Part shown: one piece after another, positions 3-5,972 of the stretch
How the letters are laid out: each line of letters starts with the position of its first letter
Position numbering within the stretch: position 1 is the first letter of the stretch
NCBI GenBank assembly: GCA_965649215.1
Contig: CBFGJZ010000029.1
Coordinates: 1-19,482, forward strand
Length of the DNA: 19,482 bases
Source of the DNA: a candidate division WOR-3 bacterium
GTDB taxonomy: Bacteria > Hydrothermota > Tepidihabitantia > Tepidihabitantales > CAIPLT01
Direction of reading: 5' to 3'
The notes under the pieces: generated by a model
What the model was told of the DNA's origin: nothing
Databases searched by the model: none
The model's input: only the letters and a program-made list of their open reading frames with translations
Position numbers and translations under genes: made by a program

Positions 3-422
3 GGTCTTACTGAAAAGCAAAAAAAGAAAATTGACCGTGATATTTCATATTATCTGATGAGAATTAGCGGTCAAAAAGGAAAAGCAAAACCTTATTCAGA
101 ACAACAAAAACATAAGGCAGCAGTTGAATTTGGCAAATATCGGATAAAAATTGAGCCGATTGAAGACGAAATTCAAAAAAGGCTCGGTGAACTGAATGTG
201 CCGATTGCCCATAATCAAGCATATAAAGATTTTGCTCGGGAATGTTATAAGGCACTTAAAAATAATATTGGCAGAAAATTGTCTTTTGATGATACAGATT
301 TAAAAAAGATTGCTCTCCTTGAATCAATGTTAGATGAAATTATTAAGAAATGGAATAAACAGGGATTAGATTTAAATACAATGCAAATAGTCAAAGGTAT
401 TGTCATATCAAAGTTACAGTAA
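3..422 (+). CDS. Hypothetical protein, 5'-truncated by the window edge; predicted helical C-terminal domain, possibly SIRV coat-protein-like
   Basis: The frame of ORF 57..422 stays open back to position 3 (GLTEKQKKKIDRDISYYL-MRISG...), so the true start probably lies outside the window. It ends TAA at 420-422, just before the tRNA promoter. Confidence 0.75.
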   Translation, partial: GLTEKQKKKIDRDISYYLMRISGQKGKAKPYSEQQKHKAAVEFGKYRIKIEPIEDEIQKRLGELNVPIAHNQAYKDFARECYKALKNNIGRKLSFDDTDLKKIALLESMLDEIIKKWNKQGLDLNTMQIVKGIVISKLQ

Positions 423-884: not shown

Positions 885-1598
885 ATGTCTTTTTATGATT
901 TTAAAAGTAAATATCCTCGCACTAAAATTGGTCAGAAAATAGTTGAGAAAGTAACTGATACTGTTTTTACAACAATAAAACCGTATCTGAAAGAAAATTT
1001 TTCAATTCTTGATATCGGTGCAGGAAATGGTGAGTTTGCCGAACGATGTGTTAAAAATAAATTTAATTATACAGCCATTGAAATCAACGAAATTTATTGT
1101 CAACAATTAATAAATCGGGGAATAAAAGTTATTAAAGAATATGTTCCACCAATACCTTGTTCAAATGAAGAATATGACTATGTTCACCTATCCCATCTAC
1201 TTGAACATATGACTTCATTAGAAAAAGCGATCGATTTGATAAAAGATATTTATAGGGTTCTTAAACCAAATGGATATCTCTGCATAATTGCACCTGACTA
1301 TCTTCATTCACCAAGTTTTTTTTATGATGGAGATTATTCCCATACATTTGTAACAACGGAAAACAGAGTAAAGATGTTATTAGTCGACAATGGCTATAAT
1401 ATTGTATTTAGTAAATATTTGATGGGTTGGAAAATCGGGTGGAGTGGTTGGTTGTTAAGTTTTATTGGTAAGATTTATAATAATTATTTATACTGGTTTT
1501 TTCTAAATTTGATTAAAACCAAAATTGATTCATTAAAATTTGGCAGAACAAGGGGTAGTTTTGCTCGCTCACTATTTATCTTAGCCCAAAAGGTATAA
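885..1598 (+). CDS. Class I SAM-dependent methyltransferase (glycan-cluster type)
   Basis: Motif I ILDIGAGNGEF; YDYVHLSHLLEH; RVLKPNGYLCI. Confidence 0.9.
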   Translation: MSFYDFKSKYPRTKIGQKIVEKVTDTVFTTIKPYLKENFSILDIGAGNGEFAERCVKNKFNYTAIEINEIYCQQLINRGIKVIKEYVPPIPCSNEEYDYVHLSHLLEHMTSLEKAIDLIKDIYRVLKPNGYLCIIAPDYLHSPSFFYDGDYSHTFVTTENRVKMLLVDNGYNIVFSKYLMGWKIGWSGWLLSFIGKIYNNYLYWFFLNLIKTKIDSLKFGRTRGSFARSLFILAQKV

Positions 1599-1600
1599 AA

Positions 1601-2503
1601 TTGAAAAGAATACCATTAAAACGAATTTTAGGTGTTTTTATCATTATAATTTTTTTCTATTTTATTATAAAATCGTTATACGAAAATTGGTATAATTTAA
1701 AAGAAGCAAAGTTAAGATTTGAGATATATTATTTATTGCTTTCATATATTATGATGTTTATAACTTTTATTTTAGTTGCCTTTACTTGGAAAAAAAACCT
1801 CCAAATGCTTAATGAAAATATTAGTTTAATTACAGCAATAAAAATAAATGCGATTTCAGTATTACCCAAATATGCACCAGGAAAAGTCTGGGGTATTATT
1901 GGAAAAGTATACTTAGCAAAAAAAGAGGGAATTTCTGAACATAGTTCAGTCATTACTATAAGTTTAGAGACAATTTTATATTTGTTAAGTGGTATAATAT
2001 TATTTCTGGTTACGTCACTTTCAATTATCAAAAGTAACTTTACTTATTTATATTATCTTTTAATAATTCCGATCTGCTTGATCGCAATATATCCACCAAT
2101 TTTAATACGGATAACAAATTTTTTTCTCAAATTATTTAAGCGGCCGACTATTGATATAATGCCTCATTATTACCAAATTTTAATTCTTTTGTTACTCTAT
2201 ATGCTTAGTTGGATCCTACAAGGAATCGGTGTTTTCTTTTTGATTAGTTCCTTTTATTCAATTCCTTTTAAGTCAATATTAATTATTTCGGGATTACATG
2301 CGTTTTCATGGGTCGTTGGATTTTTGAGTATAATTGCTCCTGCTGGTTTAGGGGTTAAAGAAGGAATTTTTAGTTATTTTTTATCATATATCTTACCTGT
2401 TGGAATTGCTGCAATTTCATCTCTGTTAGTGCGAATATGGGGCACAATTGGTGAATTATTATATTTTCTTATATTTTCGACAAAATTAAAAAAGTATTTA
2501 TAA
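1601..2503 (+). CDS. UPF0104 / lysylphosphatidylglycerol-synthase TM-domain (flippase-like) membrane protein
   Basis: Many hydrophobic helices; family motifs KYAPGKVW and PAGLGVKEG, plus C-terminal LLVRIW. TTG start 2 nt after the methyltransferase stop. Confidence 0.85.
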   Translation: MKRIPLKRILGVFIIIIFFYFIIKSLYENWYNLKEAKLRFEIYYLLLSYIMMFITFILVAFTWKKNLQMLNENISLITAIKINAISVLPKYAPGKVWGIIGKVYLAKKEGISEHSSVITISLETILYLLSGIILFLVTSLSIIKSNFTYLYYLLIIPICLIAIYPPILIRITNFFLKLFKRPTIDIMPHYYQILILLLLYMLSWILQGIGVFFLISSFYSIPFKSILIISGLHAFSWVVGFLSIIAPAGLGVKEGIFSYFLSYILPVGIAAISSLLVRIWGTIGELLYFLIFSTKLKKYL

Positions 2504-2508
2504 ATAAA

Positions 2509-3528
2509 ATGAAAATTCTCTATTGCACATTAACTGGTAAATCCGGTGGTGATATTTATTTTAATCAATTACAAAAAAGTCAAATAACATTAAATAACTT
2601 AATTTATTCTCAAAATTATCACCGATTTTGGTCAATTTTCCCAACTCTATTATCTCCATTTATTAAAATTACTGATTCAATTGATATCGTACATTCAAAT
2701 ATAGAGTATGGTTACATATTTCATCGTTATGATAAACCCTTAATTGTTTCTGCGTTACATATTGTGTCAGAAGATTTTATTAACAAATATTATAAATCAA
2801 CACAAAAATTTTATTATCAAGCGATTCTTAAATATATTAAAAAGACTATTGAAAAAGCTACATACATTGTAGCAATTAGTAAAGCAAGTGAATTACAAGT
2901 AAAAGAAATTGTTCAAGCAAAGAATATTCAAACAATTTATTGTGGTATTGACACAAATTTATTTCAACCTCTTAAAATAGATAATGATCCGTATGAAAAG
3001 AAGATTAAATTATTATTTGTTGGGAATCTCACAAAAAGAAAAGGAATTGACTTGCTGCCAAAAATTATGGCTAAATTAGACAATCGTTTTTTGTTATTTT
3101 ATACTACAGGGATGCGTACTCCAAAACGTATATTTACTGATAAACGAATGTTGCCGATCGGTAATTTACAATTATCAGAATTAGTCTATTGGTATAATTT
3201 ATGCGATATCTTTGTGTTGCCAAGTCGTCTGGAGGGGTTTGGCTATGCGATAGCAGAAGCGATGGCTTGTGCTAAACCTGTTGTAACGACTAACTGTTCT
3301 TCTTTACCTGAAATAGTCATTGATGGTGAAAATGGTTTTTTATGCAGAATCGATGATGTATTAGATTTTGTTGACAAAATAAAGTTATTAGCAGATAATA
3401 AACAGATGCGAGAGGAAATGGGTATCCGTGGTCGTAAACGAATTATTAATAATTTTAATTTAATAAAAATGGGAAAAGAATATAATGATATGTATCAAAA
3501 AGTCTATAAGGAGTTTTATTCATTATGA
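2509..3528 (+). CDS. Glycosyltransferase family 4 (GT-B fold)
   Basis: N-terminal SGG; IYCGID; LFVGNLTKRKG; PSRLEGFGYAIAEAMACAKPVV (E-x7-E motif); ENGFL. Confidence 0.93.
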   Translation: MKILYCTLTGKSGGDIYFNQLQKSQITLNNLIYSQNYHRFWSIFPTLLSPFIKITDSIDIVHSNIEYGYIFHRYDKPLIVSALHIVSEDFINKYYKSTQKFYYQAILKYIKKTIEKATYIVAISKASELQVKEIVQAKNIQTIYCGIDTNLFQPLKIDNDPYEKKIKLLFVGNLTKRKGIDLLPKIMAKLDNRFLLFYTTGMRTPKRIFTDKRMLPIGNLQLSELVYWYNLCDIFVLPSRLEGFGYAIAEAMACAKPVVTTNCSSLPEIVIDGENGFLCRIDDVLDFVDKIKLLADNKQMREEMGIRGRKRIINNFNLIKMGKEYNDMYQKVYKEFYSL

Positions 3529-5972
3529 AAAAAGAAAAGGCTAATAAACCTATCTTATTTCATCAACCTTTTGACCTTAATAATAAAATCGCAATAATTG
3601 TTATTTTATTATTACCAATTATTTATTTCTTGATTTTTAACTCGGGGCTTCTAACAGGTGCTAAAATGATGTATGGTTCTGATTGGTTACTAGGTGGTTA
3701 TTCTGCTCGAGAAGTGATTAGCCGTCAAATTTCTGAATTTAAAAATATCCCAATGTGGTATAATTTTATATTTAGTGGTTTACCTACGGTTTCTGGACCG
3801 TATGGAGATGTAGCATCAATTTATCCTTTTGTACGGCTTTTGATTCCAACCCACTTATTTTGGACATATTTATTCATTTTTGGCATAATGATTGCTGGTA
3901 TTGGGATGTATTTGTTTTTAAGATCTATTAATATGTCTAATGCAGTTGCGTTACTCGGGTCAATTACTTATATGTTTGCAGGTAATCTATTGTCAACAAC
4001 ATATGCAGGACACGAAGGTCGTTTATTGGCAGCTGCTTTTTTCCCGTTAGCATTTTTCTTGTGGCACAAAGCTATTATAACTAAGAAATTTATATGGTTT
4101 GTTTGTGCGGGTGCAATAGTTGGTATTAGTTTTACCCATGCACATTTTCAATTAACCTATTATGGACTATGGGTTGCTTTTGCATATTTTGTTATGCAGT
4201 TGATTATAAATCGTAAAGAAAATGGCGTTAGAAATACTGTTAAACTTATTATATTTGCCGGTATTAGTATAATAATTGCTTTAGGAATATTAGCAGTTAA
4301 TTATCTTCCATTTCTAACTAATTTAGCTTACGGAGCAAGAGGTGAAGTGAGAGGATATGAATTTGCTGCTTCCTGGGCATTACCAATTAAAGAGTTGTTT
4401 GATTTAATCGTACCCCAATTTAGTGGTATTCTTGATAATTATTGGGGTGAAAATGCATTCAAACTTCATTCTGAATATTTCGGAATAATTTTATTGATTT
4501 TTGCATTTTTTGCTTTATTAATTAAATTTAAGGAAAGAATAACGACCTTCTTTTTTACAACAAGTATTATTGCTACTTTGATTGCCCTTGGCAATCATAC
4601 TCCATTTTTTAGATTAATTTATTATACCTTACCTGGCATTAAAAGATTTCGCGGACCTTCAATGGCATTCTATTTAGTTGCTTTTTCAGTAATTGTGATC
4701 GGTTCACTTGGCTTACAATATTTAACTGAATATGCTCAAAACAAGAAAATTTTTGAAAGATCCATACAAAATAAAATCAAGAAATTTTATTATATTATTG
4801 CTATTATCTTTATTATATTGGTTTTATTATTTTTAGTTTTTAAAAACGATATTACACAAAATATTCAAGATACTAATAAATTACAAGCCTTTAATAGAAA
4901 TTTATCTTCTTTTTGGGTTGGCGTATTAATTTCTGGGTTTTTAATTTTAATAACTCTTCTATTAATTTATCAATTGCAAAATCGTAAATTAAAAATAAAA
5001 ACATTATTAATAATATTGGTTCCGCTAATTATATTTGATCTTTGGCGAATTGATAAACAATTTATAAAAACAGTTGAGCACCCTTCAGTTTATTATGGAC
5101 CTGATGAGGTTATTAGTTTCTTAACTAAAGATACTTCACTTTATCGTGTACATCCACTATATTATGAACGTTCAAACGATGGTATTTTAGATTTGTATAA
5201 TATCCAAAATGCGGGTGGTTATGCGCCAAATCCGTTACAAACTTATCAAGATTTTACAGGAGCAGAAAAGACTGTAATGTTTTCTGCACCGAACTTAGTA
5301 TATCCTAATTTTTTAAATCTTCTTAATATCAAATATATTATTAGTGTTCCCTTACCGGATGACATATCAAGATATGATATGCGGGTTCAAGCGATGATTA
5401 CAGAACTTCGCAATTTTGTAAGTCGTGCTGGAATTGAACTTGTTTACAACGGGAGAAGAAATGTTATTTACCGTAATAATAATACACTACCTCGTGCATT
5501 TTTAACACCTCGTTACGAAATTATCAAAGATAAAGATCAAATTATTAATCGTTTGAAAGATCCTCAATTTAATCCGGCAAGTACTGTAATTATTTCTGAT
5601 GATATATCAAACATAGATTCAGGCATTGATAATCTTAATGGGACCGTTCAAATAATTCACTATTCTCCTAATCGAATAGTATTAGAGACGGAACTAAACA
5701 ATGCCGGTTTTTTGGTTTTAAGTGAAAATTATCATCCTGATTGGTTATGCAAAGTTGATGGACAACTTACTAAAGTATATCGAGCCTATCATACTTTACG
5801 GGCCATTTATTTAACTAATGGAAAACATCTCGTCGAATTTTATTATTATTCAAAATATTATGTCTTAGGTAGATTAATCACAATTATTACAGTATTATTT
5901 TGTTGTGTAATAATAATACTTACCATCTACAAAAATAAAGCTAAAAAATCCATAAAGCAAACAAACCAATAA
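3525..5972 (+). CDS. YfhO-family polytopic membrane glycosyltransferase (GT-C)
   Basis: 815 aa with many TM helices. Asp (SDW) in the first outer loop followed by PMWYNFIFSGLP; large soluble C-terminal region with TLPRAF and GFLVLSENYHPDWLCKVDG, then a final TM helix. ATGA overlap with the GT4 stop; AAGGAG upstream. Confidence 0.85.
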   Translation: MKKEKANKPILFHQPFDLNNKIAIIVILLLPIIYFLIFNSGLLTGAKMMYGSDWLLGGYSAREVISRQISEFKNIPMWYNFIFSGLPTVSGPYGDVASIYPFVRLLIPTHLFWTYLFIFGIMIAGIGMYLFLRSINMSNAVALLGSITYMFAGNLLSTTYAGHEGRLLAAAFFPLAFFLWHKAIITKKFIWFVCAGAIVGISFTHAHFQLTYYGLWVAFAYFVMQLIINRKENGVRNTVKLIIFAGISIIIALGILAVNYLPFLTNLAYGARGEVRGYEFAASWALPIKELFDLIVPQFSGILDNYWGENAFKLHSEYFGIILLIFAFFALLIKFKERITTFFFTTSIIATLIALGNHTPFFRLIYYTLPGIKRFRGPSMAFYLVAFSVIVIGSLGLQYLTEYAQNKKIFERSIQNKIKKFYYIIAIIFIILVLLFLVFKNDITQNIQDTNKLQAFNRNLSSFWVGVLISGFLILITLLLIYQLQNRKLKIKTLLIILVPLIIFDLWRIDKQFIKTVEHPSVYYGPDEVISFLTKDTSLYRVHPLYYERSNDGILDLYNIQNAGGYAPNPLQTYQDFTGAEKTVMFSAPNLVYPNFLNLLNIKYIISVPLPDDISRYDMRVQAMITELRNFVSRAGIELVYNGRRNVIYRNNNTLPRAFLTPRYEIIKDKDQIINRLKDPQFNPASTVIISDDISNIDSGIDNLNGTVQIIHYSPNRIVLETELNNAGFLVLSENYHPDWLCKVDGQLTKVYRAYHTLRAIYLTNGKHLVEFYYYSKYYVLGRLITIITVLFCCVIIILTIYKNKAKKSIKQTNQ

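Follow-up and report, generated by a model that had tools for sequence, protein, structure and literature searches.

The window, by which we mean the whole 19,482-nucleotide stretch of DNA that was analysed, comprises positions 1-19482 of contig C29, that is, the start of this contig. Its first ORF (3..422) has no in-frame stop between the window's first base and the TAA at nucleotides 420-422; because the window begins at the contig start, the ORF is truncated by the assembly. A tRNA-Phe gene follows at 463-535, as stated in a preliminary description of this DNA, and the genes downstream of the ORF are all of housekeeping type: rpsT, glycosyltransferases, rpoD, dnaG, mutS2 and dnaKJ-grpE. The features of the ORF, with residues numbered along the 139-aa piece and MCP standing for major capsid protein, are as follows:

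3..422, forward strand: 3'-terminal piece of a gene (139 codons plus TAA, 5'-open ORF), almost certainly encoding the C-terminal portion of an XRE-HTH/MCP-like fusion protein of about 245 aa.
12..68, forward strand: helix 1, residues 4-22, with a conserved K-x-I-D-R-D...Y motif, matching the first part of the capsid N-terminal arm (model helices, fused-family alignments, alignment with 5w7g_B).
99..191, forward strand: long helix, residues 33-63, KP-x-S..Q..K..V.F.KYR..IE.IE.E, in which the first half continues the arm and the second is bundle helix 1 (model; bundle matches begin at model residues 36-50).
150..416, forward strand: four-helix bundle, residues 50-138, superposing on the C-terminal domains of Adnaviria MCPs (structure comparison of the model).
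222..239, forward strand: signature Y-K-D-F-A-R, Y74 to R79 (invariant columns, hhalign pairings).
267..296, forward strand: insertion of ten residues (89-98, GRKLSFDDTD) separating helices 2 and 3 of the bundle, a low-confidence loop (pLDDT 64 for block 91-100; insert in hhalign).
351..368, forward strand: W117...G121-L122 motif (KW..QGL), bundle helix 3/4 (family alignments).

The preliminary description suggested that the domain terminates a longer bacterial protein, and in all full-length relatives the part corresponding to the missing N-terminus is indeed an XRE HTH domain. Pfam HTH_3 or HTH_31 was found at the N-terminus of 4 out of 4 full-length relatives tested, which are approximately 245 aa long, and the closest intact relative (P0002, 247 aa) is 57% identical to the window protein. 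Within the alignment of the fused family, HTH_3 is matched by 24 of the 37 members, many of the remainder being fragments. The G009 orthologue is 91% identical across query residues 103-190, and its N-terminus is HTH_3 (E = 3.1e-07). An alternative start at the ATG at nucleotide 57, which would yield a standalone protein of 121 aa, was discarded because this orthologue extends upstream, at 91% identity, into the HTH. The HTH is missing from the window because the contig start falls inside the gene, and the HTH of this copy was not found anywhere else in its own assembly. We are nearly certain that the copy at 3..422 belongs to the HTH-fused architecture and that its HTH was lost at the contig break.

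For the 139-aa piece, an AlphaFold2 model (pLDDT 92.3, pTM 0.82) was built and compared with 48,161 PDB representatives. Ranks 1-5 were all occupied by Adnaviria MCPs, with Z scores of 12.0, 11.8, 11.0, 11.0 and 9.4, keeping in mind that Z values near 13 are possible for helical bundles without any relationship and that unrelated three-helix matches reached up to 9.3 in this comparison. AFV1 ORF140 gave Z 12.0, AFV1 ORF132 (3fbl_A) matched model residues 50..138 with Z 11.0 (81/82 residues), and the rudiviral structures 6wq0_A (89 residues) and 3f2e_A (77/83 residues) gave Z 11.0 and 9.4, with rmsd of 1.7 and 2.0 Å, respectively. The MCPs of SIFV, SFV1 and PFV2 were also within the top 50, where eight separate MCP entries were present. 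In the model of a 327-aa paralogue, 35% identical to the window protein (pLDDT 89.7), MCPs took ranks 1-3 (Z 12.7, 11.6 and 11.6), while residues 1-84 were matched by XRE structures (Z 11.5). Both models are predictions from one method, and the training of AlphaFold2 included the solved MCPs.

The preliminary description had proposed a SIRV/AFV-type coat-protein-like helical module at the end of the ORF and had set superposition on the capsid four-helix bundle as its test beforehand; the model does superpose (3fbl_A, rmsd 1.4 Å), and capsid proteins lead the PDB matches of two paralogue models. Foldseek likewise placed AFV1 ORF140 first in the PDB (probability 1.00, TM 0.57/0.64), and a Foldseek-type search of BFVD returned an unnamed 140-aa entry first (TM 0.51), with named capsid proteins at ranks 30 and 48. 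The N-terminal helical arm of the capsid proteins has its counterpart in two helices of the model, residues 4-22 and 33-49; the AFV1 coat protein in its virion form (5w7g_B) aligned with model residues 8..138 over 122/126 residues at an rmsd of 4.2 Å, the conformation of the model being a predicted one.

The sequence patterns reported in the preliminary description were largely recovered. The first, I..EI...L....V.......Y..FARE.YKAL, is exact from I53 onwards (I53, E56-I57, L61, V66, Y74, F77-A78-R79-E80, Y82-K83-A84-L85), but its start is not, since F43 lies 10 residues before I53 rather than 6, four residues having been dropped. The second, L...L..I..KW..QGLD...M..V..IV, is exact from L106 to V134. 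A match of about 43 residues to the SIRV MCP core had been described as ungapped; this claim is not quite right, because hhalign opens a gap of 4 residues between F43 and I53. The anchors Y, F and AL coincide with those matched to rudiviral MCPs in the profile-profile alignment (AYKDFARECYKALK vs IYQGFGLKVARALN), and the short insertion reported ahead of the last two helices is real, its ten residues being in the insert state in the hhalign alignments. In the fused family R47, E54 and L61 of the long helix are nearly invariant, as are W and L of KW..QGL, this W being invariant in the family of small bacterial proteins described below, and Y74 is the sole invariant column. By hhalign, the signature Y74-R79 pairs with Y-x-x-F-[AG] of the viral proteins (IYQGFG in rudiviruses, MYIAFG in AFV1) and, in the small bacterial family, with Y-L-x-F-[AG]-R.

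With the 139-aa single sequence as query, Pfam gave chance-level matches only (DUF5625, 0.058; Phage_Gp19, 0.079), as did PHROGs (best 0.79); NCBIfam gave MsvR with 17 bits vs a cut-off of 220, phmmer against the PDB gave multicystatin and apolipoprotein A-I at a domain E of 0.44 or worse, and nothing usable came from the ESM Atlas. Neither PF12193 nor PF21660 was detected in the window protein by Pfam search at E up to 10, BLASTP produced no match to AFV1 ORF140, and no MCP was retrieved from the PDB sequences by the window-family profile on its own, although weak PF12193 matches occur in 3 of 37 fused-family members (best 0.016). MCP alignments for profile-profile comparison were assembled from GenBank virus records, because a homologue search with AFV1 ORF132 had yielded only 4 near-identical proteins. 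Direct hhalign of the window family vs MCPs gave P of about 1e-3 to 1e-4 overall (2-4e-4 in the runs set against nulls), with probabilities of 7-45%. The resemblance is above chance level: the scores of 30.7 and 29.6 were reached in 0 of 70 column shuffles each (maxima 17.2 and 19.0, respectively), the reversed-profile control scored about 11, and the P values are comparable to that of a control alignment of rudivirus vs AFV1 (1.2e-4).

The transitive link runs through standalone bacterial proteins of about 123 aa (range about 115-130), MCP-sized, of which four or more are encoded in the genome that contains the window. One such 123-aa paralogue matched PF12193 with 32.6 bits (gathering threshold 25.2, E 1e-7), and among 23 small proteins 19 matched PF12193, 3 matched PF21660 (best E 9.7e-4) and 2 matched SFV1_VP4; in the four from the own genome, PF21660 was not found at E up to 10. 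A scan of the own genome with the PF21660 family returned nothing at the family loci and one weak match in an unrelated 1,049-aa ORF (E 0.09), which we judged to be chance. The top four PDB sequences for the small-family profile include the SIRV2 coat protein 3j9x (8e-6), SSRV1 (1.6e-5) and AFV1 ORF140 (0.003). On one side the small family aligns with rudiviral MCPs (hhalign 96.2%, E 2.6e-9, 114 columns), and on the other with the window-type domain (99.2%, E 1.3e-19). Moreover, sequence and structural registers are the same: window Y74 pairs with Y74 of ORF132, and model residues 50..138 pair with chain residues 51..132. Because the window protein has no direct sequence match to an MCP, homology of its domain is argued from structure together with this transitive sequence link. 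Taking the structure, the profile-profile alignments and the intermediate family together, we consider it very probable that the last 115-135 residues of the protein are truly homologous to the Adnaviria MCP of SIRV2/AFV1 type.

The bacterial proteins occur in three architectures, namely standalone, basic, MCP-sized proteins; an HTH followed by arm and bundle, the type of ORF 3..422; and longer forms of 290-340 aa with an HTH, a degenerate bundle, an arm and a second bundle, in which the insert aligns with the small family at an hhalign probability of 97.1%. Members were found in 65 of 272 genomes of the phylum, on contigs of up to 0.9 Mb, all within one order of candidate division WOR-3 and in every family of that order, with 1-15 copies per genome. 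A scan of genome contigs also recovered four loci in MAGs labelled 'uncultured bacterium'. In public annotation the proteins are 'hypothetical', 'HTH protein' or 'XRE-family transcriptional regulator' and make up two families of at least 45 and at least 78 database clusters. Across the window and 25 further family loci (10 small-gene and 15 fused-gene), the neighbours are housekeeping or restriction-modification genes only, with none for an integrase, a virion protein or replication among them; when ±4 kb were compared, the own-genome neighbours were not conserved around small-gene orthologues. Because of these neighbours, the protein is by context a capsid-protein homologue and not a capsid protein.

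Compared with the rudiviral MCP (SIRV2 ORF134 and SSRV1; PF12193, Sulf_coat_C; 3J9X, 6WQ0, 3F2E), the bacterial proteins have in common the four-helix bundle with an N-terminal helical arm, the size in the case of the small proteins (about 123 vs 134 aa), a basic character (pI 9.2-9.9) and the Y-x-x-F-[AG] signature. The R..R..KW..F arm motif is likewise common to the small proteins and the rudiviral MCP, the N-terminal R..RR..KW..F of the former pairing with RS.SQRY.KW.AKF of the latter. Rudiviral structures matched both bacterial models with Z 9.4-11.6 (9.4-11.6 for 3f2e_A, 11.0-11.3 for 6wq0_A) and rmsd of 1.5-2.0 Å, although identity is just about 12-23%. Unlike the viral protein, the bacterial ones are chromosomal with no virion gene alongside, and the window copy is of the XRE-HTH-fused type and carries the ten-residue loop insertion. 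Structurally, both models were closest to the AFV1 coat proteins ORF132 and ORF140 (PF21660, MCP_C; 3FBL, 3FBZ, 5W7G; Z 11.0-12.7), which align with the window family in the same hhalign register; AFV1 differs in having two paralogous MCPs that form a heterodimer within a lipid envelope.

The capsid fold is the defining trait of the virus realm Adnaviria and, to our knowledge, has so far been described from archaeal viruses only. Clear homologues on bacterial chromosomes, both standalone and HTH-fused, would give this fold its first cellular context, would make it testable where the capsid protein originated and whether the wrapping of A-form DNA was invented by viruses or is an activity of cells, and would provide a fold and a testable function for families labelled only 'HTH protein' or 'hypothetical'. 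No report of Adnaviria MCP homologues in bacteria or other cells came up in our literature search, the scope of which did not include Krupovic & Koonin (2017) and Krupovic et al. (2021).

Considering all of the above, we favour, with a probability of roughly 60%, the reading that ORF 3..422 is part of a chromosomal XRE-HTH protein with an MCP-homologous tail, acting as a dimeric regulator or local DNA organiser. The full-length protein would bind DNA, the XRE HTH supplying sequence-specific anchoring, while the MCP-like module would pair with a second copy or a paralogue, as in capsomers, with its basic arm possibly laid on the DNA; the outcome would be a dimeric transcription regulator or a local DNA-organising protein. 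This mechanism of regulation through dimerisation is, on balance, slightly favoured. It is weakened by the fact that XRE regulators employ many unrelated C-terminal dimerisation domains, which makes 'regulator' a default reading. Relatives of the window protein are similar to XRE/Cro-C1-type regulators (C.BclI 2B5A, SinR, ClgR, 434 repressor) in having the N-terminal HTH_3/HTH_31, a DNA-binding head and a helical tail. They differ in that the C-terminal domain is best matched in PDB searches by capsid proteins and not by XRE regulators, that the tail is capsid-derived or capsid-related, and that the family is multi-paralogous in small genomes. A homodimer prediction for the 139-aa piece (score 0.06, mark 0.42) counts neither for nor against dimerisation. 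The tail may be regarded as a putative domesticated DNA-binding or DNA-protecting domain, as the preliminary description suggested.

It is conceivable, though rather unlikely, that the standalone and HTH-fused modules retain the ancestral activity of capsid proteins, forming dimers that wrap dsDNA with their arms and polymerise on it, perhaps pushing it toward the A-form, which would amount to a chromatin-like protection or silencing with the HTH forms nucleating at particular sites. Consistent with such coating, the model offers a counterpart to the full length of the MCP, arm included (as seen with 5w7g_B), rudiviral MCPs share the arm motif, the proteins are basic, copies number 1-15 per genome and small orthologues are 79-85% identical between genera, which suggests strong constraint. 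In addition, the tandem bundles of the long forms resemble a fused capsomer. A preprint on archaeal 'Demeterviridae' describes a viral SIRV2-like MCP that is a tandem fusion and is proposed to form a complete capsomer (10.1101/2025.08.23.671958); it has two MCP-like units per polypeptide, as do the long bacterial forms, but in the latter the first unit is degenerate and is placed behind an HTH. Against coating stand the more acidic composition of the small proteins relative to the SIRV2 MCP (13-16 D+E vs 2) and the fact that bundle surfaces serving lattice contacts in the virion need not be conserved. HU is also already present in two copies, so there is no nucleoid-protein gap calling for a new protein, and a role of the MCP-like proteins as an HU replacement was ruled out on the same ground. 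The broader proposition, that this WOR-3 order keeps cellular homologues of Adnaviria capsid proteins that as small dimers coat, protect or silence the chromosome, possibly as A-form, with HTH-fused forms nucleating coats at specific sites, seems to us still a little less likely. If DNA wrapping were true, the hallmark protein of an entire virus realm would gain its first relatives in cells, possibly the long-sought lineage of its cellular ancestor; alternatively, the bacterial proteins could point to an ancient capture from an archaeal virus by a bacterium, or to undiscovered bacterial adnaviruses.

An ordinary four-helix-bundle dimerisation domain that came to look capsid-like by convergence is very improbable and already largely refuted. 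Helical bundles do recur, and the direct sequence signals between the window family and MCPs are weak, but the intermediate family lies above the curated Pfam threshold with hhalign probabilities of 96% and 99% on its two sides, the registers coincide at Y74, the Y-x-x-F-[AG] signature is common to both groups, and eight MCP entries are among the top 50 of 48,161 chains.

It is about as improbable that the gene is a remnant of an integrated filamentous virus or other element beside tRNA-Phe, being part of it or recently derived from it, with no function in the host. The tRNA-Phe gene does lie 41 bp downstream, the G009 orthologue is broken and adjoins an rve transposase, many copies are at contig ends, and at 4 of 10 loci a small paralogue has a restriction-modification, ResIII or methylase gene beside it, the neighbours of the small paralogues varying between genera. 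Nevertheless, subfamilies retain housekeeping neighbours across genomes (purE-Sua5, RlmN, nitroreductase), the family is spread throughout all families of the order, and integrase, virion and replication genes are lacking from the window and the 25 loci. A scan of IMG/VR viral contigs, which reaches close relatives only, gave no relative of one small protein, and with AFV1 ORF132 it gave AFV1 itself only. The suggestion in the preliminary description that the ORF marks the edge of an unrecognised element is thus unsupported, because the downstream genes are housekeeping ones and neither an integrase nor a virion gene is among them. Finally, the small and by extension the fused MCP-like proteins might work with restriction-modification islands, for instance to protect the host's DNA or detect that of invaders, given an HsdR gene directly upstream of the copy on contig C6, an AddA/UvrD-like helicase-nuclease gene upstream of that on C5, ResIII and N6_N4 methylase genes flanking 3 of 6 relatives' loci and an ECF sigma factor near 2 loci, but this is most improbable, as the copy at 3..422 is without any such neighbours and plain housekeeping genes surround 6 of 10 small-gene and all 15 fused-gene loci.

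The ORF at 3..422 on the forward strand gives 139 residues on translation, from an open frame starting at nt 3 to a TAA at 420-422. As the window begins at the start of contig C29, being its first 19,482 bases (assembly of 1.64 Mb in 39 contigs, 95% complete), the ORF is 5'-truncated by the assembly and lacks a genuine N-terminus, and the lost part was not found elsewhere in the same assembly. It is followed by:

463-535, tRNA-Phe (GAA), 3' of the ORF
582-827, rpsT
885-5972, co-directional cluster (class I methyltransferase, LPG-synthase-TM-like protein, GT4 glycosyltransferase, 815-aa YfhO-like membrane protein), likely to serve in glycosylation of the cell envelope

The rest of the window is of housekeeping type: besides the methyltransferase, LPG-synthase-like, glycosyltransferase and YfhO genes it comprises rpoD, dnaG, mutS2, genes for an rsmE-like methyltransferase and an MFS transporter, radC, dnaJ, dnaK and grpE.

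The 139-aa piece was matched in 11 of 41 related genomes, mostly several times per genome, in open frames of ~240-340 aa, and all four full-length relatives tested in Pfam carry an N-terminal XRE-type HTH (HTH_3/HTH_31), the HTH-bearing relatives including paralogues on contigs C18 (240 aa) and C4 (328 aa) of the same genome. The closest intact relative, P0002, has 247 aa and 57% identity. The nearest orthologue, from genome G009 (88% identity over query residues 1-92; 91% over the residues common with its N-terminal ORF), extends upstream into an XRE-type HTH; this copy (L004:1195-1931, G009:C1) has a stop and a frameshift after '...KALKKN', adjoins an rve-family transposase and is probably a pseudogene. 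Since the full-length relatives all carry the HTH and the G009 orthologue runs into one, the window ORF is almost certainly the 3' portion of a gene encoding a ~245-aa XRE-HTH protein, in keeping with the proposal of the preliminary description that the domain sits at the end of a larger bacterial protein.

Searches of Pfam, NCBIfam and PHROGs with the 139-aa piece returned chance-level matches and nothing better, and comparison of PDB sequences with the family profiles retrieved HTH proteins only, with no match to the C-terminal domain alone. An AlphaFold2 model of the 139 residues, built with a 37-row alignment (pLDDT 92.3, pTM 0.82), has five helices (4-22, 33-63, 68-89, 98-119, 124-138). 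In the PDB, Foldseek placed first AFV1 ORF140 (3fbz; probability 1.00, TM 0.57/0.64, E only 0.15) and also listed the AFV1 virion chain 5w7g_B, all others having TM < 0.35; in BFVD, an unnamed 140-aa entry came first (TM 0.51), with the major capsid protein (MCP) of Beppu filamentous virus and a 'SIRV coat protein' at lower ranks. VIA-align, an aligner that works independently of Foldseek, was applied to 48,161 PDB representatives.

Top VIA-align matches of the model
1, AFV1 ORF140, 3fbz_A: Z 12.0
2, AFV1 virion, 5w7g_B: Z 11.8, 122/126 residues, model 8-138
3, AFV1 ORF132, 3fbl_A: Z 11.0, rmsd 1.4 Å, 81/82 residues
4, SSRV1, 6wq0_A: Z 11.0, rmsd 1.7 Å, 89 residues
5, SIRV coat C-terminus, 3f2e_A: Z 9.4, rmsd 2.0 Å, 77/83 residues

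Coat proteins of SIFV, SFV1 and PFV2 appeared further down. The whole-protein model (pLDDT 89.7) of a 327-aa paralogue from the same genome, 35% identical to the window protein in the C-terminal domain, likewise placed MCPs first to third (Z 12.7, 11.6, 11.6), with XRE proteins matching residues 1-84. SIRV/AFV1-type capsid proteins thus rank top with both paralogue models in the structural comparison that the preliminary description had suggested. The best unrelated rows for the window model, covering three helices only (model 67-139), reached Z 9.3, and, because the models are predictions and helical bundles may give such Z values by chance, as the aligner itself warns, sequence evidence was sought.

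Capsid alignments were prepared from GenBank virus records: A3 (six rudiviral MCPs), A4 (AFV1 ORF132/140 and three relatives) and A5 (an 18-row mix). These were compared by hhalign with an 18-row (A2) and a 74-row profile of the bacterial C-domain.

Profile-profile alignments (hhalign)
A2 vs A5: probability 29%, P 5.9e-4
A2 vs A4: probability 11%, P 2.8e-3
A2 vs A3: probability 7%, P 5.6e-3
74-row profile vs A3: probability 45%, P 2.2e-4
74-row profile vs A4: probability 37%, P 3.6e-4

The positive control compared rudiviral with AFV1 MCPs, whose homology is accepted from their structures, and returned 55% (P 1.2e-4). Reversed targets scored ~11, and 70 column shuffles per target reached maxima of 17.2 and 19.0 against the observed 30.7 and 29.6 (0/70 each). 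The register is consistent with the structural ranges, window Y74 pairing with ORF132 Y74 and SIRV2 Y76 within a common Y-x-x-F-[AG] motif, and the pairing proposed in the preliminary description, AYKDFARECYKALK with IYQGFGLKVARALN, was recovered; the residue patterns described there are present in the translation, apart from the first six positions, which were miscounted (four residues dropped, F43 to I53). In a Pfam scan, 3 of 37 fused-family members had weak matches to PF12193 ('Sulfolobus virus coat protein C terminal'), the best at 0.016.

Many matches of the C-domain profile across the phylum were short ORFs, and four of them are intact, basic, standalone 123-aa proteins of MCP size encoded in the same genome:

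L038:3883-4251, +, contig C5
L039:3813-4181, -, contig C9
L040:4064-4432, +, contig C6
L041:4028-4396, +, contig C2

The C5 protein matches PF12193 over residues 7-114 with 32.6 bits (E 1e-7), above the curated gathering threshold of 25.2; two others match it at E ~0.002, and the fourth matches SFV1_VP4 weakly. The C9 protein aligns by BLASTP both to SIRV2 ORF134 (E 1e-5, 119 residues) and to the window protein (E 2e-7). Among 23 such proteins (115-130 aa; alignment A8) from 17 genomes of the window's order, PF12193 was matched by 19, PF21660 by three and SFV1_VP4 by two. The top four PDB sequences for the A8 profile were the SIRV2 coat protein 3j9x (8e-6), SSRV1 (1.6e-5) and AFV1 ORF140 twice (0.003), the fifth match lying already at 0.1. 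By hhalign, A8 aligns to rudiviral MCPs at 96.2% (E 2.6e-9, 114 columns), including the N-terminal arm (RPASRRLDKWNAMFS with RSYSQRYAKWQAKFN), and to the window-type domain at 99.2% (E 1.3e-19). As the small family is thus linked significantly to both, we consider the C-terminal domain of the window protein to be homologous to Adnaviria capsid proteins through a transitive chain, with a probability of about 0.9, and take the small family as the decisive link. Both the fold result and the direct alignments agree with this chain, and the SIRV-type likeness first proposed is borne out by the fold match, the hhalign links and the small-family PF12193 match.

Three architectures were distinguished:

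Small proteins: arm + bundle
Short fusions, to which the window protein is assigned, ~225-260 aa: HTH + arm + bundle
Long fusions, ~290-340 aa: HTH + degenerate bundle + arm + bundle

Long fusions have an additional ~90-aa segment between HTH and arm (roughly positions 138-206 in the 328-aa paralogue, L016:2790-3776, - strand), first flagged as a weak second match in a local HMM search. The third architecture follows from its match, aligned over 31 long forms, to the small family (hhalign 97.1%, E 6.8e-11, 69 columns). At the sequence level the long forms are tandem 'pseudo-capsomer' proteins, comparable to the tandem-fused archaeal viral MCP, with two MCP units per chain, reported in a preprint (10.1101/2025.08.23.671958). 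In two genomes (L008:875-1836, L035:1901-2862) a family gene is an adjacent ORF pair, a 191-aa HTH-containing ORF then a 124-aa one with the MCP-like domain; either the gene is truly split or the two copies have a frameshift in common.

When 1.84 billion representatives were searched exhaustively with the 139-aa piece (phmmer), 30 proteins scored E ≤ 1e-3; profiles run against 5.8 billion proteins yielded 45 clusters of the fused family and at least 78 of the small family. Fused clusters that bear a name are entered as 'helix-turn-helix domain-containing protein' or 'XRE-family regulator' and come from MAGs of candidate division WOR-3, two of the clusters from MAGs labelled Latescibacteria; their precomputed Pfam matches are HTH families only. 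The named small-family clusters listed are 'hypothetical' or 'uncharacterized', all WOR-3 (one Latescibacteria-labelled MAG), with no precomputed Pfam domains; homologues of rudiviral capsid proteins thus stand as 'hypothetical protein' in public records. The C-domain profile matched 65 of 272 genomes of the phylum, every one in the window's order (by family 9/9, 44/44, 2/2, 4/4 and 5/6), with 1-15 matches per genome and nine in the window's own; there were none among the remaining genomes scanned, from 38 other families.

At 15 loci, fused genes neighbour genes such as purE-Sua5, RlmN, leuS, uvrB, mraZ and nitroreductase, one neighbour recurring across different genomes per subfamily, and a transposase adjoins one locus. 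At ten small-gene loci (four from the same genome, six from relatives) the genes adjoin V-ATPase B, SurA, gltX, GidB, Lon, Gmk and Dtd housekeeping genes, an ECF sigma factor being close by in two, and the neighbours differ between genera despite 79-85% protein identity. Restriction-modification, methylase or ResIII genes lie beside four (type I HsdR, ResIII or N6_N4 DNA-methylase; L040 on C6, L065, L066, L067), which may reflect a link to defence islands or just variable regions. No integrase, virion or replication genes were seen in the window or at the fused- and small-gene loci examined, and no relatives were found on IMG/VR contigs in a scan reaching only close relatives. The context of the family is cellular, not viral. 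The sole phage-flavoured neighbour seen, a 153-aa ORF directly upstream of the C6 small gene (L040:3499-3957, +), matches Pfam DUF7307 'Pam3 gp33-like protein' at E 4e-6.

The fold is called unique to these archaeal viruses in passages of PMC12282232, PMC10848233, PMC9169541 and PMC7189273, and a full-text literature search of partial coverage turned up no account of Adnaviria MCP homologues from bacteria or other cells. The preprint 10.1101/2025.08.23.671958 roots the tree of SIRV2-like MCPs with DUF732 (PF05305) as outgroup; some distant non-viral relative has therefore been considered there. Of the 34 families with matches to the small proteins, the best 25 did not include DUF732, and a DUF732 protein of Mycobacterium phage Hawkeye was a weak structural match (BFVD rank 11, TM 0.37). 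The window protein is a cellular and almost certainly HTH-fused form of a kind of protein otherwise known only from archaeal filamentous viruses.

In virions, as described in PMC7189273 and PMC12282232, the N-terminal arms of an MCP dimer wrap A-form DNA and the bundles form the lattice. The bacterial proteins retain the arm together with its basic motif, and their pI is likewise basic (small proteins 9.2-9.9, window piece 9.6, SIRV2 MCP 10.2). The fused forms add a predicted sequence-specific HTH. The most conservative reading would be an XRE regulator that dimerises through its capsid-like tail, the tail perhaps also forming heterodimers with the small paralogues and adding auxiliary DNA contacts; genuine DNA coating would be the bolder one. 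The genome also has two HU genes. The sole sequencing run listed for the genome's DNA, a metatranscriptome of the same study labelled 'hot springs metagenome', contained next to none of the window's sequence words; should the organism be an inhabitant of hot springs, its habitat would be one in common with hosts of adnaviruses.
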